A model generated the notes under the pieces. It did no database searches and was not told the DNA's origin. It saw nothing but the letters and a program-made list of their open reading frames with translations. The translations under genes and the position numbers were made by a program. From Candidatus Methylomirabilota bacterium (GTDB lineage: Bacteria; Methylomirabilota; Methylomirabilia; Rokubacteriales; CSP1-6): 64,000 bases of DNA. This document shows positions 1,975 through 56,442 of this stretch, one piece after another. The stretch covers positions 1,318 to 65,317 of the forward strand of contig DASRHC010000004.1 of NCBI GenBank assembly GCA_035650715.1, written 5' to 3'. How positions within the stretch are numbered: position 1 is the stretch's first letter; each line of letters starts with the position of its first letter.

Positions 1975-3564
1975 GTGCGTCGTCTCCCGGGATCACGCGT
2001 CCTCGGGACGCTTGCCCTGCTGCTCTCGGCCACCGCGGCCCTCGCGCAGCCCGCCGGCGACGGCCAGGGCTGGGAGGCCCCCATGTCGGCCGGCGACCGC
2101 GCCTACCAGCAGGGCCGCTACGCCGAGGCGGAGCGGCAGCTGACCACCGCGCTCGAGCGCGCGGAGCGGAGCCGCGGGCCGCAGGACCCGCGGGTGGCCC
2201 TGAGCCTCGGGCTCCTCGCCGGCACCTACCAGGCCGCGGGCCAGTACGCGCGGGCCGAGCCCCTGCTGGGCCGCGCCCTCGGCATCGCGGAGGGCGCGCT
2301 CGGACCTGATCACCCCGAGGTGGCCGCGACCCTCACCGCGCTTGGCTCTCTCCACACCGCGCAGGGGCGCTACGCGCAGGCGGAGCCGTTGCTCCGCCGC
2401 GCCCTCGCGATCGACCAGAGGGTGCTCGGCCCGGAGCATCCCGAGGTGGCCCAGACGCTGCAGGCCCTGGCGGTGCTCGAGGGCCGGCAGGGCCGCTACG
2501 CGGACGCGGAGATGCGCGCGCGCCGGGCGCTCGCCATCCGCGAGAAGACGTTCGGGCCGCAGCATCCCGACGTGGCCACGAGCCTCGCCGACCTCGCCGA
2601 GATCTACCTGCCCGAGGGCCGGTACGTGGAGGCCGAGCAGCTCGCCCAGCGCGCCCTCGCGATCCGCGAGGGCCGGCTGGGCGCGGAGCATCCGGCGGTG
2701 ATCGGTCCGCTGGTGACCCTGGCGTCGCTGCAGACCGAGCAGGGCCACTGGACGCGCGCGGAGCCGCTGGCCCGGCGCGCGCTGGCGGTGGCCGAGAAGG
2801 CGCTCGGGCCCGAGCATCCGGACGCGGCCACCGCGCTCGGGCCGCTCGTGGCGCTGGCCCGGGAGCGCGGCCGCTACGGCGAGGCGGAGACGCTCGCACG
2901 CCGCGCGCTCGCCATCCGGGAGAAGGCGCTCGGCCGCGAGCATCCCGACGTGGCGATGGTGGTCGCCGACCGGGCGGAGCTGGCGGTGCGGCGGGGGCAG
3001 GCCGCGCAGGCCGAGCCGCTCGCCCGGCGCGCGCTCGCCATCCAGGAGAAGGCGCTCGGGCCCGAGCATCCCGACCTCGGGCAGAGCCTGCGCGCCCTCG
3101 CCGGCGCCCAGGCGCGGGAGAGCCGCTACGCCGAGGCCGAGCCGCTGCTGCGCCGCGCGCTCGCCATCGACGAGAAGCGGCTCGGCCCCGAGTCACCCCG
3201 GGTGGGGCTCGACCTCGTCCAGCTCGGTGCGCTCGAGCGACGGCAGGGCCGGTTCGCGGAGGCGGAGCCAGTGGTCAAGCGCGCGCAGGCCATCGCGGAG
3301 AAGCGCTTCGGGCCGGAGCACCCGCAGGTGGCGGCCGCCATCGTGGAGCTGGCCTCGCTCTACCGCGATCAGAGCCGCTTCGCCCAGGCGGAGCCGCTCT
3401 ACCAGTGGGCGCTCGCCCTGCAGCGCAAGTCGCTCGGGCCCGATCATCCGGACGTGGCCGATTCGCTCCAGGAGTACGCGGCCCTGCTGAAGCAGACGAA
3501 CCGCGAGTCGGAGGCGGGCCCGCTCGAGACCGAGGCCCGCGCCATCCGGGCCCGGACCCCCTAG
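1975..3564 (+). CDS. Secreted tetratricopeptide-repeat protein (about 11 TPR_12 / kinesin-light-chain-type repeats)
   Basis: GTG start 3 nt after the caspase stop. Signal-peptide-like 'LGTLALLLSATAALAQP'. The ~42-aa unit 'AEPLxRRALAIxEKxLGPEHPDVA' is iterated. Confidence 0.85.
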   Translation: MRRLPGSRVLGTLALLLSATAALAQPAGDGQGWEAPMSAGDRAYQQGRYAEAERQLTTALERAERSRGPQDPRVALSLGLLAGTYQAAGQYARAEPLLGRALGIAEGALGPDHPEVAATLTALGSLHTAQGRYAQAEPLLRRALAIDQRVLGPEHPEVAQTLQALAVLEGRQGRYADAEMRARRALAIREKTFGPQHPDVATSLADLAEIYLPEGRYVEAEQLAQRALAIREGRLGAEHPAVIGPLVTLASLQTEQGHWTRAEPLARRALAVAEKALGPEHPDAATALGPLVALARERGRYGEAETLARRALAIREKALGREHPDVAMVVADRAELAVRRGQAAQAEPLARRALAIQEKALGPEHPDLGQSLRALAGAQARESRYAEAEPLLRRALAIDEKRLGPESPRVGLDLVQLGALERRQGRFAEAEPVVKRAQAIAEKRFGPEHPQVAAAIVELASLYRDQSRFAQAEPLYQWALALQRKSLGPDHPDVADSLQEYAALLKQTNRESEAGPLETEARAIRARTP

Positions 3565-4904: not shown

Positions 4905-6085
4905 GCGGGGCCTCCGGGGGCGCGGAGCGTGAACACGGTCATGTCGTCCTGGATGCGGGAGCCGCCGCGACGGAGCACGTCCTCGCACAGGGCACGGGCC
5001 AGGGCCGGCGGCGGCTGCGCGCGCTGCGCGGCGAGCAGCGGCAGGAGCGCGGCGACCCCGGGACGACGGCCGTCCTGCTCCTGGGCCTCCAGGATGCCGT
5101 CGGTCAGGAGCACCAGCGCGTCACCCGCGTCGAGGCGGAGCGAGGTCTGGTCGAACCGCGCGTCCTCGAACATCCCGAGCGGCGGCCCCGCCGACTCGCC
5201 GAGCGCGGCCACGCGGGCCCCGCCCGCCGCGGGCACCAGCACCGGGTCGGGATGGCCCGCGCCCGAGATGGACACGCGGCCCACCTCGGCCGGGTCCGGC
5301 ACCGCCAGGATCAGGGTGACGAACATGGAGGGCGGCATGTCGCGGCAGAGCGAGCGGTTGAGCCGGGCCAGCACCGCGCCCGGCGCGTCGAGGTCGCGCG
5401 CGATCTCCCGCAGGAGCGTGCGGGTCATCACCATCAGCAGCGCGGCCGGGATGCCCTTGCCGGAGACGTCTCCCACCGCGACGCCGACGCGATCGCCCAT
5501 CGGCACCAGGTCGAAGAAATCGCCGCCCACCACGGTGGAGGAGCGCAGCATCGCCCCCGCCTCCAGCCCGGCCACCGTCGGGGGCACCGGGGGCAGCAGG
5601 CGCTCCTGGATGTCGCGGGCCGCCTCCAGGTCGCGGCCGAGCTGGGCCATGCGCTCGGCGGTGAACCAGTCGCCCAGCACGCTCAGCAGCGGGCTCACCG
5701 CGCGAGCGTGGGCCCAGCGCTTGAGGAGGGCGGCCACCCGCGCCAGCACCTCCGCGGGCTCGAACGGCTTGCCCACGTAATCGTCGGCGCCCCGCTCGAA
5801 GCCGCGCATCTTGTCGGCGAGGGCGGAGCGCGCGGTCAGCATGATGACCGGGACCTGCGCGGTGGGCGCGTGCTGGCGGATGCGCTTCAGGGTCTCGAGC
5901 CCGTCCGCGCGCGGCATCATGACGTCGAGCAGGATCAGGTCGGGGGCCTGGCGCTGGACGGCCTCGATCGCCTCCAGCCCGTCGCCCGCGCTCGCCACCT
6001 CGTAGCCGGCCCGGCGCAGGGTGACCACCAGGATCGTGCGGATGTCCTCCTCGTCGTCGACGACCAGGATGCGCGCCCCGCTCAC
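4901..6085 (-). CDS. Response regulator receiver fused to a PP2C/SpoIIE-type serine phosphatase (RsbU-like)
   Basis: REC motifs 'ILVVDDEEDIR', 'LLDVMMPRADG', 'YVGKPF'. PP2C motifs 'GGDFFD', 'VAVGDVSGKG', 'LVLLTDGI'. GTG at 6085 forms a GTGA overlap with the kinase stop. Confidence 0.85.
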   Translation of the reverse strand: MSGARILVVDDEEDIRTILVVTLRRAGYEVASAGDGLEAIEAVQRQAPDLILLDVMMPRADGLETLKRIRQHAPTAQVPVIMLTARSALADKMRGFERGADDYVGKPFEPAEVLARVAALLKRWAHARAVSPLLSVLGDWFTAERMAQLGRDLEAARDIQERLLPPVPPTVAGLEAGAMLRSSTVVGGDFFDLVPMGDRVGVAVGDVSGKGIPAALLMVMTRTLLREIARDLDAPGAVLARLNRSLCRDMPPSMFVTLILAVPDPAEVGRVSISGAGHPDPVLVPAAGGARVAALGESAGPPLGMFEDARFDQTSLRLDAGDALVLLTDGILEAQEQDGRRPGVAALLPLLAAQRAQPPPALARALCEDVLRRGGSRIQDDMTVFTLRAPGGPA

Positions 6086-9000
6086 GCCCGGCTCCCGCTC
6101 GTCGGCCGCAGACGCGCCCGGACGGCGCCCAGCAGGTCCGCGGAGCTGAACGGCTTGGTGAGGCACACGGTGGCCCCGAGGGCGCGCGGGTCGCCCGGCT
6201 CCACCTCGATCGCGCTCAGGATCACCACCGGCGTCTCGCGCGTCTCCGGCTGCTCCCGCAGCAGGCGGATCGCCTCGAAGCCGTCGAGGTCGGGCAGCAT
6301 CAGGTCCATCGTGATCGCGTCGGGGCGCTGCTGACGGGCCAGCTCCACGCCCTCGAGCACGCGGCCCGCCTCGATCACCCGGAAGCCGGACATCTGGAGC
6401 ACGTCCCGCATCAGCGCGCGCACGTCCGGCTCGTCGTCGACCACCAGCACCAGCGGCGCCTGCGCGTCGCCCTCGGCCGGCGCCCCGGCCCCGGCCGCGT
6501 CGGCCGGCACCCCGGGCAGCGGCAGGCGCACCGTGAAGGTGGCGCCCGCGCCGAGCGCGCTCTCCACCCCGATGCGGCCGCCGTGCTCCTCCACGATCCC
6601 CCGGCAGATGGCGAGCCCGAGGCCGGTCCCGCCCACCGTCCGCACGTTGCTGCCGTCGAGCTGCTGGAACTTCTGGAAGAGGCGGCCCACGTCCTCCGGG
6701 GCGATGCCGCGGCCGTGATCGCGCACCCAGATGGCCAGCTCGGGGCCCTCGCGCCGGGCGCCCACCGTGACGCGCTCTCCCTCCGGCGAGAACTTGATCG
6801 CGTTCGAGAGCAGGTTGGTCACCACCTGGACCATGCGGTCGAAGTCGACCTGGACCGACGGCAGGTCGGGCTCGATCTCCGCCTCGATGGTGATCCGCCG
6901 CGACTCCGCGAAGCCCCGGATCCCGTCCACCGCCAGCTCCACGAAGTCGAGCGGCCGGTGCGCGGCCAGGTCGAGGTGGATCTGCCCCGCCTCCATCTTG
7001 GAGATGTCGAGGATGTTGTTGATGAGCCGGATGAGGCGGTCGGTGTTCTTGAGCGAGATGTCGACGAGGTGCCGCTGGGTGTCGTCGAGCACCAGCTGCC
7101 CGTCGGAGAGCAGGAGATGGAGCGATCCCTTGATCGACGCGAGCGGCGTACGCAGCTCGTGCGAGACGGTGGAGACGAACTCGGTCTTCATCCGATCGAT
7201 CTCCCGCTCGCGTGTGACGTCGCGGAGGGTGACCGTGACCCCCACCACCGCGCCCAGGAGGTCACGCGTGGGGGTGACCGTCCAGCGCAGGGTCCGGCGC
7301 TCCGAGCCGATCAGCTCGAGGTCGCCGTCGGCGGCCTCGCCCGGGCGCTCGAGCGCGGCGGTCAGGGCCGGCCCGTCCGCGGCGGTCCAGTCCACCGTGC
7401 GCGCCACCGCCTCCACGAGGTGCGCGAAGGGCCGGCCGACCATCGCGCGGGGCGCGACGCCGAGCAGCTCGCCGCCCCGCTCGTTGAGGGCCACCACCCC
7501 GCGCTCCAGGTCCAGCACCAGGAAGCCGTCCGACGTCGAGGCGAACACCTGCTCGAGCTGGGTCTTCTGGTTCTCCGCGTTCTCGAACAGGGTCGCGTTG
7601 TCGAGCGCCATCGCGAGCTGGTCCGCGTAGGCCGCGAGCAGCCGCGTCTCGGCCTCCGCGAGTGCGCGCGGCCCCGCGAAGAGCAGGAGCAGGCCGCCCA
7701 GCACCCGGCTGCGGCCCCGCACCGGGAAGCCGGCCAGCGCGGTGCCCGCCTCGAGCAACCCGGGCCCGAGCAGGTCCGGCCGGGCCGCCGCGTCCGGGAT
7801 GAGGAGCGGGGCCTCGCGCCGGCGAAGCGGCTCGGCGAGGGCGCGGACGGTGCGGTCCGGCCAGTCGCCCCAGGCGATCGCCTCGCCGCTGCCCGCGCCC
7901 GGCTCCTCGAACAGCACGATGCCGACCCGGCGCGCCCCGAAGGTCTGCCCGAGCGTGCCCGCCGCCTCGGGCAGCAGGCGATTGACGTCCAGCGTGCGGT
8001 GCAGCGTGCGGGCCGCCGCGTTGAGCAGCGCCGCCCCCGCGAGGTTCTGCTGGGTGACCGTGTACAGCCGCGCGTTCTCGATGGCCACCGCGGCCTGGGC
8101 GGCCAGGGCCGAGAGCAGGTTCACCTCGCGCTCGGTGAACACGTGCGGCTCGAAGTAGGAGCCGCCCAGCACCCCGAACACCTCGTCGCGCACCACGATC
8201 GGCACCGCCAGGTAGGCGCGGGGCGCGCCCGCCCCGCTCATGGCGGTCGCGTTCTCGGTCCCGTAGGCCACGGTCGGGTCCGCGAGCCGGTCGCTGGTCC
8301 AGGCGGGCCGGCGCTCCGCGTAGGCCCGCCCGGCGATCCCCTCCCCGGCCCGGATCAGGCGCGGGCGCGCGAAGCGCTCGGAGTGGTTGCGCCCGCGCAC
8401 GAACACGAGGCCGCCGCGCGTCGCGTCCCAGCGATAGACGCCCGCCGCCGCGCAGCCGAGCGCGGCGATGACCCCGTCGGAGACCAGGTCGAGCACCGCG
8501 TCCAGCTCGAGCGTGGACGAGAGCTTCCGGGTCACCTCGAGCAGGAGCGTGGCGTCGCGCTCCCGCTGTCGCGTCTCCTGGTAGAGGCGCGCGTTGTTCA
8601 CCGAGGTGGCGAGCTGCTGGCAGAAGAGCTCGAGGTGCGCCACCCCGCGCCGGGTGATGGGCCGGCGGCTCGGCTTGTTGTCCACGGCGACCAGGCCGAT
8701 CGGACGTCCCTGCACGAGCAGCGGCACCACCGCGAAGCGCCGGCTGCGCAGCACCGGATGCCGGCGCCACCGCGCGGACAGCCGCAACACGCCGGCCAGC
8801 TGCTCGTCGTCGGCCACCATCAGGGTGGTGCCCGAATCCCACACGCTCCGGAAGGCGCCGGCCTCGTCCAGCGGCACCACCGCGGGCACGCCCGGATCGC
8901 CGTCGCGGCCCGCCACCAGGCGGAGCGCGGCGCCGCCGTCCTCCGCGAGCCACACGCTGAGCCGGTCGAAGGAGAGCGCCCGGCCCGCCCCCTCCGCGAA

Positions 9001-10185
9001 GATCTCCACCCGCTTCCGGAGGTCCATCGAGCGGTCCATGGCCTGAGTGAGGGCGTAGAGATCCTCGGTGAGCCGCCGACGATCCTGGATGTCCTGGAAG
9101 AGGCGCGCCTTGGCGATCGCGGACGCGGACTGCGCGACGAAGACGTCGAGCGTCTCCTGGTCGTCGGGGCCGAAGCGGAACGGCTCGCGGCCCGCCATCA
9201 CCAGGACGCCCAGCAGCATGTCCTGGAAGACGATGGGCATGCCGAGCAGGCTACGGAAGCCGTGGGCGCTCCACCACTCGCGGTTGGTCACGCGCGGGTC
9301 GACCGCGACGTCGTCCACCGCGAGGATGCGCCGCTCGGTGGCGACCCAGCCCACGTCGCCGTCCCCGAGCTCGAAGGAGCGGCACGGGAAATCGGGGACG
9401 CCGGTGGGGCCCGCGAACGCGCGCGCCTCGACGCGCTTCAGCGCCGCGTCCACCACCCAGACCGACACGACCGGCACCCGCATCAGCTCCGCCGCGGCCG
9501 CCGCGATGCCGGCCAGCACCTCGTCGGGCTCCAGCGAGGACGAGATCAGCTGGTTGAGGCGCGCCAGCGTGCGCAGACGGTCCGCGCGGCCGTTCAGGGC
9601 CTCGTGCAGCCGCGCGTTGCGGAGCAGCACGCCGGCCTGCTCGCCGATGGCCCGCAGCGGGGCCACCTCCGCCTCGGTGAAGCGGCGCCCGGTGCGCCAC
9701 CACACGAGGTAGAACAGGCCGGCCACCTGCCCGTCGAGCACCAGCGGGACGATCAGGCCCGACCGGTGCGGGACGCGGCGGAACGCTTCGGCGGCGAAGC
9801 GCGGATCCGACGGCACGTCGTCGCTCCAGACGACGTGGCCGCTGCCCAGCAGCGTGTCGAGCTGCCGCTGGTCGGAGGCGGTGAGCCGCGCCCCGCCCGC
9901 CGAGGGCGGCGGGTCCTTCGGCACGTGGTAGCCGGCCACCGGGGCGAGCTCCGCGTCGGCGGACCGGCGGACGTACGCGGCCACCGTCTCCGCGCCGGTC
10001 ACGCGGGCGAGCTCGCGGCAGATGAGGCGCAGCGCCTCGACGAGATCGGTGGTGCCGCTGGCGATGCGCGCGACCGAGAGAAGCGCCGCGGTCTCGCGGA
10101 GCCGCGACTCGAGCGCCCGGTCGCCCGCCGGCTCGAACCCCGCGCCCTCGTCCGGGCGGGCACCGCCGGCCGTCTGGCTCGTCAT
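6082..10185 (-). CDS. Soluble hybrid sensor histidine kinase: about 5 GAF domains, PAS, HisKA, HATPase_c, C-terminal REC
   Basis: H-box 'SHELRTPL', G-box 'GGTGLGLAICRGIVEEHGG', REC 'LVLVVDDEPDVR...DLMLPDLDG'. No hydrophobic transmembrane segment seen in 1367 aa. Confidence 0.9.
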   Translation of the reverse strand: MTSQTAGGARPDEGAGFEPAGDRALESRLRETAALLSVARIASGTTDLVEALRLICRELARVTGAETVAAYVRRSADAELAPVAGYHVPKDPPPSAGGARLTASDQRQLDTLLGSGHVVWSDDVPSDPRFAAEAFRRVPHRSGLIVPLVLDGQVAGLFYLVWWRTGRRFTEAEVAPLRAIGEQAGVLLRNARLHEALNGRADRLRTLARLNQLISSSLEPDEVLAGIAAAAAELMRVPVVSVWVVDAALKRVEARAFAGPTGVPDFPCRSFELGDGDVGWVATERRILAVDDVAVDPRVTNREWWSAHGFRSLLGMPIVFQDMLLGVLVMAGREPFRFGPDDQETLDVFVAQSASAIAKARLFQDIQDRRRLTEDLYALTQAMDRSMDLRKRVEIFAEGAGRALSFDRLSVWLAEDGGAALRLVAGRDGDPGVPAVVPLDEAGAFRSVWDSGTTLMVADDEQLAGVLRLSARWRRHPVLRSRRFAVVPLLVQGRPIGLVAVDNKPSRRPITRRGVAHLELFCQQLATSVNNARLYQETRQRERDATLLLEVTRKLSSTLELDAVLDLVSDGVIAALGCAAAGVYRWDATRGGLVFVRGRNHSERFARPRLIRAGEGIAGRAYAERRPAWTSDRLADPTVAYGTENATAMSGAGAPRAYLAVPIVVRDEVFGVLGGSYFEPHVFTEREVNLLSALAAQAAVAIENARLYTVTQQNLAGAALLNAAARTLHRTLDVNRLLPEAAGTLGQTFGARRVGIVLFEEPGAGSGEAIAWGDWPDRTVRALAEPLRRREAPLLIPDAAARPDLLGPGLLEAGTALAGFPVRGRSRVLGGLLLLFAGPRALAEAETRLLAAYADQLAMALDNATLFENAENQKTQLEQVFASTSDGFLVLDLERGVVALNERGGELLGVAPRAMVGRPFAHLVEAVARTVDWTAADGPALTAALERPGEAADGDLELIGSERRTLRWTVTPTRDLLGAVVGVTVTLRDVTREREIDRMKTEFVSTVSHELRTPLASIKGSLHLLLSDGQLVLDDTQRHLVDISLKNTDRLIRLINNILDISKMEAGQIHLDLAAHRPLDFVELAVDGIRGFAESRRITIEAEIEPDLPSVQVDFDRMVQVVTNLLSNAIKFSPEGERVTVGARREGPELAIWVRDHGRGIAPEDVGRLFQKFQQLDGSNVRTVGGTGLGLAICRGIVEEHGGRIGVESALGAGATFTVRLPLPGVPADAAGAGAPAEGDAQAPLVLVVDDEPDVRALMRDVLQMSGFRVIEAGRVLEGVELARQQRPDAITMDLMLPDLDGFEAIRLLREQPETRETPVVILSAIEVEPGDPRALGATVCLTKPFSSADLLGAVRARLRPTSGSRA

Positions 10186-22206: not shown

Positions 22207-22296
22207 GGGGTCAGGTCTTACATTCCGACATTTTCGCGGCACGGAGGACAGCCCTTCGGCGGACAAATGTCGGAATGTAAGACCTGACCCCGTCAG
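22207..22296. repeat. Perfect palindromic element: 27-bp arms (22207-22233 / 22265-22291), 31-nt loop; miniature form of the repeat family also found at 52514 and 54784
   Basis: GGGGTCAGGTCTTACATTCCGACATTT and its exact reverse complement. About 48% GC against a background above 70%. The 5 nt GTCAG beyond the right arm are shared with the copy at 54811-54815. Confidence 0.9.
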
Positions 22297-51311: not shown

Positions 51312-52007
51312 GTGCCGCTCACCACGCAAGAGATCGAAGCGCTCAAGAAGATCACCAGTCCCAGCGTCGCCAACGCCATCGAGACCTTCAAGGTGCGGCC
51401 CCGCGAGCAGGGCAACGTCTCCTCGGCCATCCGCGCCCTCTTCCCCGAGATGGGCCCCATGGTCGGCTACGCGGTCCCCTGCCTGATCCGGGCCGAGGCG
51501 GGTCCCATCGAGGGCCACCGCGCGAGCACCTACGGCTGGTGGGACTACGTGCTGTCGATTCCGGCCCCGCGGGTGATCGTGGTGCACGACCTCGACGATC
51601 CGCGCGGCCAGGGGGCCCAGTGGGGCGAGGTGCAGGCGAACATCCACCGGGCCCTCGGGTGCGTGGGCGTGGTCACCGACGGCTCGGTGCGCGACCTCGA
51701 CGAGGTGCGCGCGCTCGGCTTCCAGTTCTGCGCCGCTCACGTGTCCGTCTCGCACGCCAACGTCCACATGGTGGACTTCGGCATCCCGGTGAAGGTGGGC
51801 GGGGTCTGGATCAAGCCCGGCGACCTGATCCACGGGGACCAGCACGGGGTGTGCACCATCCCGCACGAGATCGCGGCCCGGATCCCGGAGGCCATCGCGA
51901 AGGTGGAGGCCGACGAGCGGGAGATCATCAAGGTCTGCCAGAGCCCGGGCTTCACCGTCGACAAGCTGAAGGAGCTGTACAGGCGCATCCGGCCCGGGAC
52001 CTACTGA
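51312..52007 (+). CDS. RraA-family protein (RraA / 4-hydroxy-4-methyl-2-oxoglutarate aldolase fold)
   Basis: GTG after GGGAGGA. 'GVVTDGSVRDLDEV' core motif. Confidence 0.8.
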   Translation: MPLTTQEIEALKKITSPSVANAIETFKVRPREQGNVSSAIRALFPEMGPMVGYAVPCLIRAEAGPIEGHRASTYGWWDYVLSIPAPRVIVVHDLDDPRGQGAQWGEVQANIHRALGCVGVVTDGSVRDLDEVRALGFQFCAAHVSVSHANVHMVDFGIPVKVGGVWIKPGDLIHGDQHGVCTIPHEIAARIPEAIAKVEADEREIIKVCQSPGFTVDKLKELYRRIRPGTY

Positions 52008-52075
52008 GCCCCGGCCGCGGGCGGAGCGGTTGAGCGGGGCGTCCCCGCGTGCGTACAATGCGCCGGGACGCCCCC

Positions 52076-52510
52076 ATGATCGAGATCCGACTGCCCCGGG
52101 TGGCCGACTCCGTCGGCTGCACCACCCTCGCCGCCACCGTCATCGGAGAGGAGCGCGCCCCCGCGTTCATCCGGTCGCACATGGAGCGGCACCATCTGAT
52201 CGTGGCCGAATCCGCGGGCGAGGTGGTGGGGTTCGTGGCCTACCGCCTCGACTGGTTCCAGTGCACGTTCGTCAGCCTGGTGGTGGTGCGCGAGGACTTC
52301 CGCCGCAAGGGCATCGCGCGGGAGTTCTTCAGGTCGGTGGAAGCGGTCTCGCCCACTCCCCGTCTCTTCTCCTCCACCGAGGAGACGAACGTGCCGTCGA
52401 TCCGCATGCACACCGCGCTCGGCTTCGCCCCGAGCGGGCACATCGACAACCTGCCCCAGGGCGTGCGCGAGCTCCTCTTCTACAAGCGCATCCCACCCCG
52501 CGGCGTCTAG
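52076..52510 (+). CDS. GNAT-family N-acetyltransferase
   Basis: 'VVVREDFRRKGIAREF' acetyl-CoA motif. Start chosen downstream of a TTGAGC-18-TACAAT promoter-like pair (52030-52059). GTG 52049 is also possible. Confidence 0.75.
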   Translation: MIEIRLPRVADSVGCTTLAATVIGEERAPAFIRSHMERHHLIVAESAGEVVGFVAYRLDWFQCTFVSLVVVREDFRRKGIAREFFRSVEAVSPTPRLFSSTEETNVPSIRMHTALGFAPSGHIDNLPQGVRELLFYKRIPPRGV

Positions 52511-52513
52511 CCC

Positions 52514-52542
52514 GGGGTCAGGTCTTACATTCCGACATTTTC
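52514..52542 (+). repeat. Left-type copy of the repeat family (29 nt identical to 22207-22235)
   Basis: GGGGTCAGGTCTTACATTCCGACATTTTC, starting 3 nt after the GNAT stop and ending 15 nt before the next ATG. Confidence 0.9.
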
Positions 52543-52557
52543 TCGAGGGAGGCGGTC

Positions 52558-53019
52558 ATGTCCGAGAAGACGACGCTCTTGAGCGAGGCCGAAACCGAGC
52601 TGCAGACGTTCAAGCGATCCTTCGCGGGCCTCGACGAGGCGCGCATGCGCGAGGTGTGGCTCGGCACGTGGAGCGTACGCGACATCGTCGCGCACATCTC
52701 GGGCTGGCATCGCGAGATGATCCCGGCGCTCGAGCGCCTGGCCCGGGGGGAGCGGCCGATCCCGGCGGGCGTGTCCTACGACGACGTCGACGCGTGGAAC
52801 GCGAAGTTCGCGGCGGCCAGGAAGGGCGCGGCCACCGCGGACATCCTGAAGGAGCTCGACGCCTCCCACGCCGCCTTCATGCAGGCCGCGGCCGGGGTGC
52901 CGGAGGACCGCTACGTGCCGGGCAAGACCGCGCACAAGATCGTCGATCTCAACAGCCGGCACCATTATCACGAGCACCGGGAGCAGATCGAGGCGTGGCG
53001 CAAGCGCGCCGGCGTCTAG
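52558..53019 (+). CDS. DinB-superfamily four-helix-bundle protein (DinB/ClbS-like)
   Basis: ATG after GGGAGG. 'WSVRDIVAHISGWH' and C-terminal 'HYHEHREQI' His-rich motifs. Confidence 0.7.
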   Translation: MSEKTTLLSEAETELQTFKRSFAGLDEARMREVWLGTWSVRDIVAHISGWHREMIPALERLARGERPIPAGVSYDDVDAWNAKFAAARKGAATADILKELDASHAAFMQAAAGVPEDRYVPGKTAHKIVDLNSRHHYHEHREQIEAWRKRAGV

Positions 53020-53052
53020 ATCCGTAGGGCGACCGGCGGCGCGGGGCGCGGC

Positions 53053-54333
53053 ATGGGGCGCATCCGAGAGCTGGCCGAGCAGTCCTGGGCGGGCCTGATC
53101 GAGCCGTACGCGCTGTGGACGCCGACCGGCGCCATCGAGGAGATCGCCGACGGCGTCTTCTTCCTGCATGCCTTCGCCAACGTGACGGTGGTGCGGACGG
53201 GCGACGGCCTGCTCCTGATCGACAGCGCGAGCGAGGTCGCCCGCGACAGGACCTTCGCGGCGGTGCGCGCGGTGGACCCCGCCCCGGTGCGGGACGCGAT
53301 CTACACGCACGGCCACGTCGATCACGCCTTCGGCCTGCCTCCGTTCCGGGCGGAGGCGCACGAGAAGGGATGGCCCCCGCCCCGGGTGGTGGCGCACGCC
53401 AACGTCGTTCCGCGCTTCGACCGCTATCGCGCCACCGCCGGATACAACCGGCTCGCCAACGCGCGCCAGTTCTCCCGGCCGCCTGCGTGGCCCGGCGAGT
53501 ACGTCTACCCGGACACCACCTACGAGCGGCGGCTCCGGGTCGAGGCGGGCGGCTGCGCGCTCGAGCTCGAGCACGCCCGCGGGGAGACCGACGACCACAC
53601 CTGGATCTGGTGGCCGGAGGGCCGCGTGCTCTGGACCGGCGACCTCTTCCTGTGGGTGGCCCCCAACGCGGGCAATCCCCAGAAGGCGCAGCGCTACGCG
53701 GCCGAATGGGCGGTGGCGCTCCGGGCCATGGCCGCGCGCGACGCCGCCCTGCTGATCCCCGGGCACGGGATGCCGATCCTCGGCGCCGACCGGGTGCGGC
53801 AGGCCCTGACCGAGACCGCGGAGTGGCTGGAGGCCCTCGTCGAGCAGACGCTCGCGCTGATGAACGCGGGCGCCCCGCTCGAGCGGATCCTGCGCGAGGT
53901 GCATCCGCCGGCCCGCCTGGCCGACCGCCCCTATCTCCAGCCGGCATACGACGAGCCGCAGTACGTGGTGCGCAACCTGTGGCGGCTGTACGGCGGCTGG
54001 TACGACGGCGCGCCCGCGCACCTGCAGCCGGCGCCCGCCGCGGAGCTGGGCGCGGAGGTGGCGACGCTCGCGGGCGGCGTGGCGATGCTCGTGGCCCGGG
54101 CGCGGCGTCTGGCCGATGAAGGCCGCCTCGCGCTCGCGAGCCATCTGATCGACTGGGCGGTGGCGACGGCGCCGGACGACCGCGCCGCCCACGCCGCCCG
54201 AGCCGAGATCTACGGGCGCCGGGCCGCGCGGGCACGCGCCCTCATGACCCGCGGCATCTTCACCGCCGCCGCGCGCGAGTCGGCGGAGCGGGCCGGCCCC
54301 GGGGCCGCGTCGGGCGCCGGCGGCGCGGGCTGA
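53053..54333 (+). CDS. MBL-fold metallo-hydrolase with alkyl-sulfatase-type dimerisation domain
   Basis: 'YTHGHVDHAFG' (HxHxDH). The helical C-terminal half resembles the alkyl sulfatase dimerisation domain. No SCP2 tail. Confidence 0.8.
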   Translation: MGRIRELAEQSWAGLIEPYALWTPTGAIEEIADGVFFLHAFANVTVVRTGDGLLLIDSASEVARDRTFAAVRAVDPAPVRDAIYTHGHVDHAFGLPPFRAEAHEKGWPPPRVVAHANVVPRFDRYRATAGYNRLANARQFSRPPAWPGEYVYPDTTYERRLRVEAGGCALELEHARGETDDHTWIWWPEGRVLWTGDLFLWVAPNAGNPQKAQRYAAEWAVALRAMAARDAALLIPGHGMPILGADRVRQALTETAEWLEALVEQTLALMNAGAPLERILREVHPPARLADRPYLQPAYDEPQYVVRNLWRLYGGWYDGAPAHLQPAPAAELGAEVATLAGGVAMLVARARRLADEGRLALASHLIDWAVATAPDDRAAHAARAEIYGRRAARARALMTRGIFTAAARESAERAGPGAASGAGGAG

Positions 54334-54337
54334 GACC

Positions 54338-54799
54338 GTGGCGGCCACCTATCGTCTGTCCCCGAGCCGGCGTGCGGTCAACCGGCTGGTGCGCCTCCTG
54401 CTGCGCCTGGGTCTCATGCCCGAGCCGACCTACCTGCTCACCGTGCGCGGCCGCCGCACCGGCCGGGTGCTGTCCACGCCGGTGACGCTGGTCGAGGAGA
54501 GCGGGGAGCGCTGGCTGGTGGCGCCCTACGGCGAGGTGGCGTGGGTGCGGAGCGCGCGAGCGGCGGGCCAGGTCATGCTGAGCCGCGGCGGGAAGGAAGA
54601 GCGCGTGGCGATCCGGGAGCTGGCGCCGGCCGCCGCCGCGCCCGTGCTCCGGCTCTACCTCGCGCGCGTGCCCATCACCCGCCCGTACTTCGATGTCGCG
54701 CCGGGCTCGCCGCTGGCCGCCTTCGAGGCGGAGGCGCTGCGCCATCCCGTCTTCCGGCTCGAACGCGCGGCCGGCGGCACTCGAAATGTCGGAATGTAA
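54338..54799 (+). CDS. Nitroreductase/deazaflavin-dependent oxidoreductase-family (DDN/DUF385-like) protein
   Basis: 'LLTVRGRRTGRVLSTPVTLVEESGERWLVAPYGEVAWVRSARAAG'. The last 4 codons and the stop lie inside the repeat. Confidence 0.7.
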   Translation: MAATYRLSPSRRAVNRLVRLLLRLGLMPEPTYLLTVRGRRTGRVLSTPVTLVEESGERWLVAPYGEVAWVRSARAAGQVMLSRGGKEERVAIRELAPAAAAPVLRLYLARVPITRPYFDVAPGSPLAAFEAEALRHPVFRLERAAGGTRNVGM

Positions 54800-54815
54800 G
54801 ACCTGACCCCGTCAG
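54784..54815 (-). repeat. Right-type copy of the repeat family (32 nt identical to 22265-22296)
   Basis: AAATGTCGGAATGTAAGACCTGACCCCGTCAG. Contains the stop codons of genes on both strands. Confidence 0.9.
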
Positions 54816-55507
54816 ACGACCTCGTCGGTGCGGGAGAGGACCTCGCCGAAACGGGAGAGGACCGGCGGCGGCAGCGTCTTGTAGACCTCGGCGATGCGCA
54901 GGTTGATCTCGCGGTTCGCCAGGGCGAAGAGGCTCCGGCCGGCGGCGTCGCCCTCCACCAGGAACGGGCCCAGGCGGTCCACCTCCAGCACCCAGAGCGC
55001 CTGCGCGATGCCGAGCTCGCGCAGCCAGTGGACCTCGCGCACGCGCCGGATGCCGCGCCCGTAGGCCGCGCCCATGCCGTAGCCCACCGTGGTCAGGTAG
55101 ACCGCGCCGTGGGGCACGAACCACTCGCGGTAGGCCAGCTCGGTGAGCCCGGCCTTGCCCACGATCACACGCGCGCCGGAGCGCTCGAACCACGGCCCCA
55201 TGGACTTGCCGAAGCGGAAGCTGGCGGTGGCGGTCACCGCCTCCACCACGTGGGTGCCGTCGGGCCGGGTGGCCGCCGCGGGCGAGCAGTGGAAGTTGAC
55301 GTTGGTCAGCGCGCGCACCGAGGGCGGGAACGGCAGCGCCTTGTCCACCACCTGGCGGTAGACGCCCTCGCGCGCGGTATAGAGCGCGCCGCTCAGATAC
55401 ACCACGTCGCCCAGCTTGAGCGAGCGGATCGCCTCGTCCGACACCGGCGTGGTGAGGTGCACCTCGTCCATCGCCACGTCGTCGAGGCGCTCGATCGCCG
55501 CGCCCAT
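54812..55507 (-). CDS. Fe-S hydro-lyase beta subunit (class I fumarate hydratase / tartrate dehydratase C-terminal-type)
   Basis: 'GDVVYLSGALYTAREG', 'GKAGL', 'AVYLTTVGY'. 1-nt overlap with the alpha subunit gene. Confidence 0.8.
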   Translation of the reverse strand: MGAAIERLDDVAMDEVHLTTPVSDEAIRSLKLGDVVYLSGALYTAREGVYRQVVDKALPFPPSVRALTNVNFHCSPAAATRPDGTHVVEAVTATASFRFGKSMGPWFERSGARVIVGKAGLTELAYREWFVPHGAVYLTTVGYGMGAAYGRGIRRVREVHWLRELGIAQALWVLEVDRLGPFLVEGDAAGRSLFALANREINLRIAEVYKTLPPPVLSRFGEVLSRTDEVV

Positions 55508-56442
55508 CACTCGATGCCCTCGCGCCGGTAGTAGTCGGTGAACCAGGCCGGATCGCTCCGGAACTCCACGCGCCCGTCGGGATGGATGCGCGCGGTGGCC
55601 CGGCGCGACGACAGGCAGAACTGGTGGATGCCCACCGGCATGCCGCCGGTGTGGGTGTAGGCCAGCTCCACGTGGGTGGCGACGACCATCGAGGTGCCCG
55701 CGAAGCCCATGGCCCCGATGCCGATGTAATTGCCGAGCGCGGTCAGCTCGGCCTCGAGCGCGGCCGCGGCCGGGTCGGGGTTGCGACTGCCGACGGTGCG
55801 CAGGCACGCGGCTTCCTTGCCGAGCCGCACGCAGGTGTCCTTGGCCCCGCCGATCCCGACGCCCACGATGGCGGGCTGGCAGGCCAGCCCGCGCTTGCCC
55901 GACTCGATCAGGGTATCGACGAAGAAGCGCTTGATGCCGGCCACGCCGTCGCCGGGGAACAGCATGCGGAAGTCGCTGCCGAAGAGGCCGCCCTTGTGGA
56001 CGGTGGTGACGTCGATCCAGCCCGCACCCGGCTCCACCGAGTAGGTCACCTCGGGGGCGTGGATGCCCACGTTGTCGTTGCGGTCGGCGCGGGTCAGCGG
56101 GTGCACCCGGTTGGGCCGCAGCGGGATCGCCTGGGTGGCGTCCGCGGTCGCCCGGCGCAGCGCGCGCTCCAGCGCGACCAGCCCGCCCTCGACCACCGCC
56201 TCGTTGCCGAGCTTCACGTAGTAGCGCGGCAGCCCGGTGTCCGCGCACATCGGCCGCCGGTCCGCGGAGGCGATGTCCCAGTTCTCCAGCATCTGCTCCA
56301 GCACGAACCGCGCGAGCCGGTTGCCCTCGCGCTCCTTCGCCAGCCGCACGCCCTCCCGGTAGTCCGCCGGGATGTCGATGGCGGCCCGCGCCATCAGCTC
56401 GCGCGCCGTATCCTCGACCAGCTTCGCCGGAATCGCCCCCAC
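55507..56442 (-). CDS. Fe-S hydro-lyase alpha subunit (class I fumarate hydratase / tartrate dehydratase N-terminal-type)
   Basis: 'PMCADTGLPRYYVK', 'VGVGIGG'. 311 aa. Confidence 0.85.
   Translation of the reverse strand: MGAIPAKLVEDTARELMARAAIDIPADYREGVRLAKEREGNRLARFVLEQMLENWDIASADRRPMCADTGLPRYYVKLGNEAVVEGGLVALERALRRATADATQAIPLRPNRVHPLTRADRNDNVGIHAPEVTYSVEPGAGWIDVTTVHKGGLFGSDFRMLFPGDGVAGIKRFFVDTLIESGKRGLACQPAIVGVGIGGAKDTCVRLGKEAACLRTVGSRNPDPAAAALEAELTALGNYIGIGAMGFAGTSMVVATHVELAYTHTGGMPVGIHQFCLSSRRATARIHPDGRVEFRSDPAWFTDYYRREGIE

Follow-up and report, generated by a model that had tools for sequence, protein, structure and literature searches.

Partnerships between short inverted repeats and tyrosine transposases have been described in two forms that bear on the locus treated here. 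In the first, pairs of repetitive extragenic palindromes (REPs) form the doublets known as REPINs, in which the spacers are less conserved and from which single arms are seen as defunct remnants (PMC3116915); groups 2 and 3 of the REP-associated tyrosine transposases (RAYTs), those associated with REPINs, are described from Gammaproteobacteria, for example enterobacteria and pseudomonads (PMC5581495; bioRxiv 10.1101/2021.07.10.451892). In the second, that of the TIRtrons, the transposase (TIRYT) genes are flanked by terminal inverted repeats (TIRs) beginning with GGGGWSAS (PMC3733652; PMC6006769), the TIR repeats occur singly or as dimers (PMC3733652), and the enzymes of HUH subclass 2.1 have a C-terminal helix-turn-helix (HTH) domain (PMC6006769). 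We found no published REP or RAYT system in the literature on Rokubacteria or Methylomirabilota. The subject of this report is a 64,000-nucleotide stretch of contig DASRHC010000004.1 from a Candidatus Methylomirabilota bacterium of the Rokubacteriales (hereafter the window), in which two inverted copies of a 27-nt sequence enclose genes for a DinB-like protein, an MBL-fold hydrolase and a DDN-like protein. The first-pass annotation of this 2.3-kb segment took it for a miniature inverted-repeat transposable element (MITE) in a passenger-carrying version. Taken as a whole, that interpretation is partly supported: the arms do come from a family of mobile elements that is most often met as a miniature hairpin, but a passenger cassette is contradicted by synteny. 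We consider it very likely that the window holds two independent solo arms of a REPIN/TIRtron-like family, and that the DinB, MBL and DDN-like genes between them are residents of the chromosome.

The repeat family and its transposase

The window contains exactly four copies of the 27-mer GGGGTCAGGTCTTACATTCCGACATTT, at 22207 (+), 22265 (−), 52514 (+) and 54784 (−), each with zero mismatches. The number expected from 100 shuffles is 0, no extra copies are present in the window at up to three mismatches, and none of the variant-subfamily arms described below were found there. Two of the copies form a doublet and two stand alone:

22207–22291, no strand: complete doublet, a REPIN-like hairpin of 85 bp, with arms at 22207–22233 and 22265–22291 and a spacer at 22234–22264
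52514–52540, + strand: solo "left" arm (REP/TIR singlet), exact 27-mer
54784–54810, − strand: solo "right" arm (REP/TIR singlet), between the DDN-like gene and the fumarase beta subunit, exact 27-mer

As first annotated, the two solo arms are exact reverse complements of each other (end-to-end span 2297 bp), both ends recur together in the 85-bp hairpin, and the arms, at 13/27 or 48% GC, stand out from a background of about 72%. The doublet has a size typical of the family and lies with the 3′ end of an M50 peptidase gene on one side and the start of a glutamine synthetase gene on the other, both genes being on the minus strand; folded as single-stranded DNA (ssDNA), it reaches −39.1 kcal/mol (z = −9.8). 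For a single arm the best internal pairing that we could find by inspection is a 5-bp stem with a bulge, one pair of which is broken in the TTGAATTAC variant. The left solo arm falls within the 47-nt intergenic region between the GNAT and DinB genes, where 3 nt separate it from the GNAT stop codon (TAG) and 17 nt from the ATG of DinB. The right solo arm, according to the translation, codes for the final five codons (RNVGM) and the TAA stop (54797–54799) of the DDN-like gene.

In one clade of Rokubacteria, a lineage-specific, non-autonomous family of hairpin repeats forms REPIN-like doublets, and the 27-nt sequence is their arm. An exact scan for a 24-nt core of the arm, run on one genome for each species, yielded 94 stretches or more, nearly all in metagenome-assembled genomes (MAGs) of Rokubacteria/Methylomirabilota, and L001–L094 were analysed together with the window. 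These 742 kb of fetched loci, window included, contain 186 arms, arranged as 83 inward-facing pairs and 20 unpaired arms; 76 of the 83 pairs span 58–115 bp, with a mode of 84–86 bp. Positions 1–25 of the arm are conserved at 96% or more, and the conserved block is sharply delimited on its outer (GGGG) as on its inner side. Retrieval with an exact 24-mer raises this figure in part by ascertainment, an effect that does not extend to the partner arm of each pair, which the query did not select. The spacers, about 31 nt long, are near random, with a pairwise identity of 0.615 compared with 0.574 after shuffling and a folding z of −0.46. Among L001–L094, several SMAG bins with the Rokubacteria-type repeat and syntenic loci bear the labels Nitrosotalea, Limnocylindria, Deferrimicrobiaceae, Verrucomicrobiia, Acidoferrum or Dormiibacterota, and we suspect that these labels probably reflect mis-binning or mislabelling.

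The outer flanks of 75 doublets bear on how the family inserts. Target-site duplications of 2–4 bp were seen at 0 of 75, of 5 bp at 1 of 75 and of 6–8 bp at 0 of 75. A Tn3 element produces a target duplication of 5 bp, and what the arm shares with a Tn3 inverted repeat is, as we take it, only GGGG(TC). Because duplications of 2–8 bp are lacking, an origin from Tn3 or another DDE element is rejected; the only gene found with matching ends, described below, is of the Y1/HUH type. A stop codon lies within 8 nt of the element end in 84 of the 150 flanks (TAG 51, TGA 25, TAA 8), and a weak flank consensus, CTAGGYY/GGGG, can be discerned, the slash marking the element boundary. In high-GC genomes TGA is usually the commonest stop codon; the excess of TAG hints at either a preference for targets containing CTAG or the creation of stop codons on insertion. 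The arms also bear on the left/right polarity that had been assigned to the ends. Both left copies in the window do share an inward TC and both right copies an outward GTCAG, but this is no property of the family, in which TC follows 32 of 150 arms inward and GTCAG follows 5 of 150 outward; both GTCAG instances in the window include the TGA stop codon of the downstream minus-strand gene.

A second palindromic family was encountered alongside the first. It is nested in the spacers of arm pairs 238–279 bp long (L062 1349–1559, L063 6247–6430 and L099 7700–7924) and consists of a self-complementary repeat of about 160–190 nt with the core ...GGCGGGTGGCACCGGGGTGGCCC...GCCGCTCGAAGAGCGGCGAGTCCGGCGAG...; free-standing copies are found in L086 (5740–5903), L106 (7290–7440) and L027.

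Whether some arm pairs enclose a transposase had been raised as a question, and two do. The open reading frames inside the arm pairs of L065 and L071, whose arms lie 988–990 bp apart, match the NCBIfam model NF047646 for REP-associated tyrosine transposases with scores of 91.3 and 95.8 bits, above its cutoff of 80 bits, and also match Pfam Y1_Tnp (PF01797, at 2.7e-12 for the 95.8-bit protein). The L071 protein, 288 aa long, is a distant relative of E. coli TnpA-REP (E = 7e-4), and its alignment with that protein (PDB 4er8) brings the HUH motif, H60-Y61-H62, and the catalytic tyrosine of an RYIVLNP motif into register. Its C-terminal match to HTH_23 (residues 244–284, E = 2.3e-5) scores 24.5 bits, just under the cutoff of 24.6 bits. 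A transposase with matching ends is thus present in related genomes, as had been proposed, but it is a Y1/HUH enzyme of the RAYT/TIRYT kind and not one of the Tn3 family or of another DDE family.

Among the best 80 matches of a scan for this transposase, on which its copy number rests, each of the seven clade genomes (7/7) contributes one copy, which adjoins a VOC-family gene and has typA on its opposite side in four. Arms flank the gene on both sides in all seven (7/7), at 68–71 nt upstream and 5–62 nt downstream, and the gene and its two inverted arms make up a unit of about 0.99 kb between the VOC-family gene and typA. The arm variant tracks the transposase lineage, TTACATTCCGAC in one and TTGAATTACGAC in the other, and doublets in those genomes carry the matching variant. 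We propose that this single-copy Y1/HUH RAYT/TIRYT enzyme mobilises the repeat family. Homologues of the transposase number at least 575, spread over many phyla at 42–52% identity. Of 73 distant loci (L270–L343), 25 have flanking arms with an outer GGGGTCAGGTCTTG in common, an end motif that is conserved across phyla and consistent with the published GGGGWSAS consensus. Some distant genomes (JAJZPZ01 and JAHFER01) have several transposase copies.

Resident genes and arm occupancy at two junctions

Gene calls and Pfam matches bear out the annotation of three co-directional genes, DinB-like, MBL and DDN-like, between the solo arms. Together with their neighbours they are arranged as follows:

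52076–52510, + strand: GNAT acetyltransferase, conserved left neighbour (Pfam PF00583, gene call; orthologues 84–94% identical)
52558–53019, + strand: DinB-superfamily/DUF1706-like protein (Pfam PF08020 at 7.6e-15; GC content at third codon positions, GC3, 0.955)
53053–54333, + strand: MBL-fold hydrolase with an alkyl-sulfatase dimerisation domain (Pfam PF00753 and PF14863; GC3 0.951)
54338–54799, + strand: F420H2-dependent quinone reductase/DDN-like protein (Pfam PF04075; a TIGR00026 match falls below its cutoff)
54812–56442, − strand: class I fumarate hydratase, beta subunit 54812–55507 and alpha subunit 55507–56442, conserved right neighbours (Pfam Fumerase_C and Fumerase)

Loci for comparison were anchored on the MBL protein and on FumA and mapped by tblastn and arm searches. 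The resulting synteny set comprises 15 loci besides the window, drawn from about 14 clade genomes in which FumA is at least 90% identical (the clade orthologues are 90–94% identical), and throughout it the order ligA, RraA-like, GNAT, DinB, optional MFS transporter, MBL, DDN (absent in some), FumB, FumA is kept. DinB orthologues of 79–85% identity occupy the same place beside GNAT in 14 related loci, the syntenic MBL orthologues are 70–81% identical, and the DDN-like gene likewise has syntenic orthologues, one of which, in L103, retains a repeat-free native 3′ end. The DDN-like gene is a resident whose C-terminus has been remodelled by the repeat. The first-pass annotation had looked to orthologous junctions that lack the 2.3-kb segment; what the 15 loci offer instead is retention of the genes with variation of the arms, an outcome that the annotation had itself named as counting against a cassette. 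Nor do the three genes stand apart in codon usage or GC3, for which a difference from the neighbours had been suggested as a test: their GC3 values are 0.91–0.955, those of the neighbours 0.945–0.978.

Occupancy by arms was recorded separately for the two junctions that border the gene block, that at the fumarase end being tallied over all 16 loci, window included:

GNAT–DinB junction, empty: 9 loci (L095, L096, L097, L098, L100, L101, L102, L118, L123)
GNAT–DinB junction, full doublet: 4 loci (L141, L185, L181 and, with a variant arm, L099)
GNAT–DinB junction, left arm only: 1 locus (the window); right arm only: 0
DDN (or MBL)–fumarase junction, empty: 3 loci (L098, L103, L185)
DDN (or MBL)–fumarase junction, full doublet: 6 loci (L087, L095, L099, L100, L102, L123)
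DDN (or MBL)–fumarase junction, left arm only: 3 loci (L096, L178, L181)
DDN (or MBL)–fumarase junction, right arm only: 4 loci (the window, L097, L101, L118)

Arm occupancy varies independently between the two junctions. Three loci (L097, L101 and L118) share the right-arm-only state of the window and are empty between GNAT and DinB, L185 has a full doublet at the left junction and nothing at the right, and a single MAG, represented by L141 and L087, has full doublets at both. The points of insertion at the GNAT–DinB junction differ as well. In the window the element follows CTAGCCC and in L141 it follows CTAGC, whereas the L185 doublet sits about 10 nt upstream and is read into by GNAT; three independent events at the minimum are implied. 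In the full doublets of the fumarase junction, the left arm is fused to the 3′ end of the DDN-like gene (CTGGGGTCAGG), an arm that L097, L118 and the window have lost. The gene block is older than the arms that border it.

Several observations concern the same interval. In L096 (DATGBR010000146.1, 7718–9195) the DDN–fumarase junction contains, after a left arm at 7718–7744, a minus-strand GDPD gene (7770–9029, 419 aa), on the far side of which a possible right-arm remnant of 5–6 nt (GAAAT/CAGACGAC) can be seen; close relatives have a plain doublet here, and a gene appears to have landed in the doublet spacer. The start of DinB in the orthologues (ATGTCGGAGAAGAC) has 8 consecutive bases (ATGTCGGA) and AAGAC in common with the inner arm (ATGTCGGAATGTAAGAC), at empty sites too (52558–52575 in the window), which may be coincidence or may be tied to the status of the GNAT–DinB junction as an insertion hot spot. 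An MFS transporter gene lies between DinB and MBL in L095 (4760–5989) and likewise in L097, L099, L100, L102, L118, L141, L181 and L185, and is absent from the window, L096, L098, L101 and L123. DDN is absent in L098, L100 and L102, and DinB in L178. The interval between GNAT and fumarase is a zone of gene turnover regardless of the repeats.

Two other repeats are recorded here for completeness. In L190, at about 4995–5125, two copies of another type of palindromic repeat (CCCTCTCCCC...GGGGAGAGGG), unrelated to the arm family, lie between fumarase and the aat-like gene treated below. In the window, positions 2109–3457 hold at least 10 tandem copies of a 126-nt unit, 60–73% identical, which probably encode 42-residue repeats of the tetratricopeptide (TPR) type.

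Origin of the solo arms and its alternatives

By analogy with the TnpA of IS200/IS605 and with E. coli TnpA-REP, the Y1/HUH enzyme would be expected to act on ssDNA, in which a doublet would fold into a hairpin with a 27-bp stem. The doublet would be the mobile unit, and solo arms, which should be immobile, would arise by deletion of half of an unstable palindrome. Insertion is into intergenic DNA with no target duplication and usually falls 1–4 nt past a stop codon. The two arms in the window occupy two different insertion hot spots. The solo arm at the DDN–fumarase junction is probably an old doublet minus its inner arm, the doublet being still complete in six related genomes; the one at the GNAT–DinB junction stems from a separate, later event. 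If the doublet is what moves and solo arms are what deletion leaves, the window arms are best read as two unrelated solo arms that face each other by chance.

Several points weigh against this account. What we see of mobility is insertion polymorphism between species, filled versus empty sites, and not transposition itself, and a tblastn search of the 64-kb window found no RAYT gene. The arm lacks a convincing palindrome and a GTAG or CGTC tag and is not a classical REP, and its conservation carries the ascertainment effect mentioned above. Both solo arms match the consensus at 27 of 27 positions; since the REPIN literature leads one to expect drift in such remnants, either the deletions are recent or the solo arms are still constrained. 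Finally, in more distant Rokubacteria (FumA 85–88% identical) the GNAT–fumarase interval holds neither arms nor the three genes, its occupant being aat, from which it follows that the three-gene block was gained or exchanged earlier. With aat in place, none of these distant genomes offers a clean empty GNAT–fumarase site. The aat-like genes (leucyl/phenylalanyl-tRNA-protein transferase), identified from the translation by reading only, lie at 3119–3736 in L188, 5120–5740 in L190 and 2563–3180 in L191.

The alternative that survives best, unlikely though we judge it to be, is that the host keeps the arms for the function of the operon. They might form a 27-bp long-range RNA duplex that closes the DinB-MBL-DDN transcript and acts as an RNase III site or stabiliser, or they might serve as protein-binding sites or terminators. 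The perfect conservation of both solo arms would fit, as would their positions, one immediately 5′ of the ribosome-binding site of DinB and the other where the last gene ends, and a layout that is identical in all assemblies of the strain that span both sites; REPs and MITEs can, moreover, affect mRNA stability (PMC3733652). Related genomes nevertheless dispense with the arrangement, nine having no arm upstream of DinB and three none downstream, and the arms belong to a genome-wide, transposase-linked family. A promoter/terminator scan of 52000–55200 found no terminator-like site or T-run at either arm, its sole promoter-like match being at 52030 and unrelated to the arms, and Rfam at gathering thresholds gave no family match anywhere in the window. 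Such a function is not exclusive of an origin as two independent solo arms, with which it is compatible.

A role of doublets and facing solo arms in gene capture or turnover seems to us quite improbable. On this interpretation foreign DNA lands in the spacer, the TIRYT handles the arm pair, and the 2.3-kb unit would be potentially mobilisable though unmoved. It draws on the GDPD gene between the arms of L096, on the palindromes nested in L062, L063 and L099, and on the presence of repeat hot spots at both borders of the GNAT–fumarase interval.

Slightly less credible again is the idea with which the analysis of this segment began, namely that the 2.3 kb form a passenger-carrying, non-autonomous mobile cassette (a mobile insertion cassette, MIC, or MITE-pair unit) that is moved in trans by way of its left and right ends. 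The arms do face inward, as they do in the doublet and in the 0.99-kb arm-transposase-arm unit, but this is one of four equally likely combinations of orientation for two solo arms. The more distant Rokubacteria do lack the three genes between GNAT and fumarase, but their interval is filled by another gene, aat. L096 adds a GDPD gene between a left arm and a possible remnant of a right arm, and two Logan contigs run exactly from arm to arm over 2298 nt, which is also what a de Bruijn assembler is expected to produce where a repeat bounds a unique segment. These contigs (L263 and L264, from SRR24677611 and SRR24677612) extend from the first base of the left arm to one base past the right arm; we considered them as excision products and rejected this in favour of breaks in the assembly graph at the repeat. 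Against a cassette stand also the native GC3 of the genes and the failure of an MBL-anchored search to find a second copy of the unit elsewhere. Most decisive are the 15 further loci, in which the same genes occupy the same locus, mostly without an arm at GNAT–DinB and with a doublet or either solo arm at the other junction, and among which the right-arm-only state recurs in three genomes that have no left arm at all. With the genes kept while the arms vary junction by junction, the cassette reading fails.

That the contig was mis-joined at its repeated arms can be dismissed with near certainty: repeats do break assemblies, Logan contigs do end at the arms, and in L181 (13652–14668, at the end of contig DATHSW010000080.1) DinB appears twice, inverted around a doublet in what is probably an assembly fold-back at the hairpin, but five independent longer assemblies of the strain run through both arms in an identical layout, three others extend as far as the left arm before their contigs end, and the gene order is conserved in related species.

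Comparison with known repeat–transposase systems

With two independent solo arms beside resident genes as the preferred explanation, the locus presents no new kind of mobile cassette, and annotations of its three detoxification-type genes should not call them mobile or recent acquisitions. The kind of system to which the arms belong is likewise already known, in the form of REPIN–RAYT and TIRtron/TIRYT partnerships. What the family adds is a well-populated example of the REPIN/TIRtron type, served by a single-copy tyrosine transposase, in an uncultured soil phylum, which widens the known range of vertically inherited repeat–transposase partnerships. Its orthologous filled, half-filled and empty sites lend themselves to studies of doublet decay into solo arms. 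There are practical consequences as well, as short-read assemblies break at the arms and gene 3′ ends are remodelled by them, the DDN-like gene here taking its last five codons and its stop from one.

The likeness is weakest to the Tn3-derived miniature elements (TIMEs) and to MICs, which are short non-coding elements or gene-carrying units between transposon-type inverted repeats, with ends that start with GGGG. Unlike these, the elements described here have no target duplication, of 5 bp or otherwise, and their ends match a Y1/HUH gene rather than a DDE one. Unlike the cargo of a MIC, the bracketed genes are syntenic residents; in the 15 further loci they occur with no arm, one arm or complete doublets at either junction rather than as a unit that comes and goes whole, and we could find no second site.

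Much closer is the REPIN–RAYT system of Pseudomonas and Enterobacteria (Bertels & Rainey 2011, PMC3116915; Bertels et al. 2017, PMC5581495). In both cases a short, over-represented and mainly extragenic sequence is found near gene 3′ ends, forms inverted hairpin doublets among which singlets are a minority, and has arms far more conserved than the spacer; in both, the transposase is single-copy, holds a conserved extragenic position and has the repeat on both flanks. The differences lie in the arm, which here is no clear palindrome and lacks the GTAG tag, and in the transposase, which is far from E. coli TnpA-REP (E = 7e-4) and has a borderline match to an extra HTH domain.

The family thus fits REPIN–RAYT, and it matches the TIRtron/TIRYT system (Di Nocera et al. 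2013, PMC3733652; subclass 2.1 of Quentin et al. 2018, PMC6006769) more precisely. It departs from that system in its host phylum, Rokubacteria/Methylomirabilota not being among the published examples that we found, and in its apparent abundance, mostly as regular 85-bp doublets, where TIR families are described as no more than moderately abundant. The C-terminal HTH domain of TIRYTs (Bac_DnaA_C, HTH_23 or HTH_28) has a borderline counterpart here in the HTH_23 match (24.5 bits against a cutoff of 24.6). Several features are shared. A Y1/HUH transposase related to TnpA-REP is encoded between perfect inverted arms of 27 nt that begin with GGGGTCAG, which fits GGGGWSAS, and that stand at short fixed distances from the gene; the same TIR is scattered through the genome as singles and as dimers, the "TIR dimers" corresponding to our doublets; and distant homologues in many phyla are accompanied by arms with GGGGTCAGGTCTTG.

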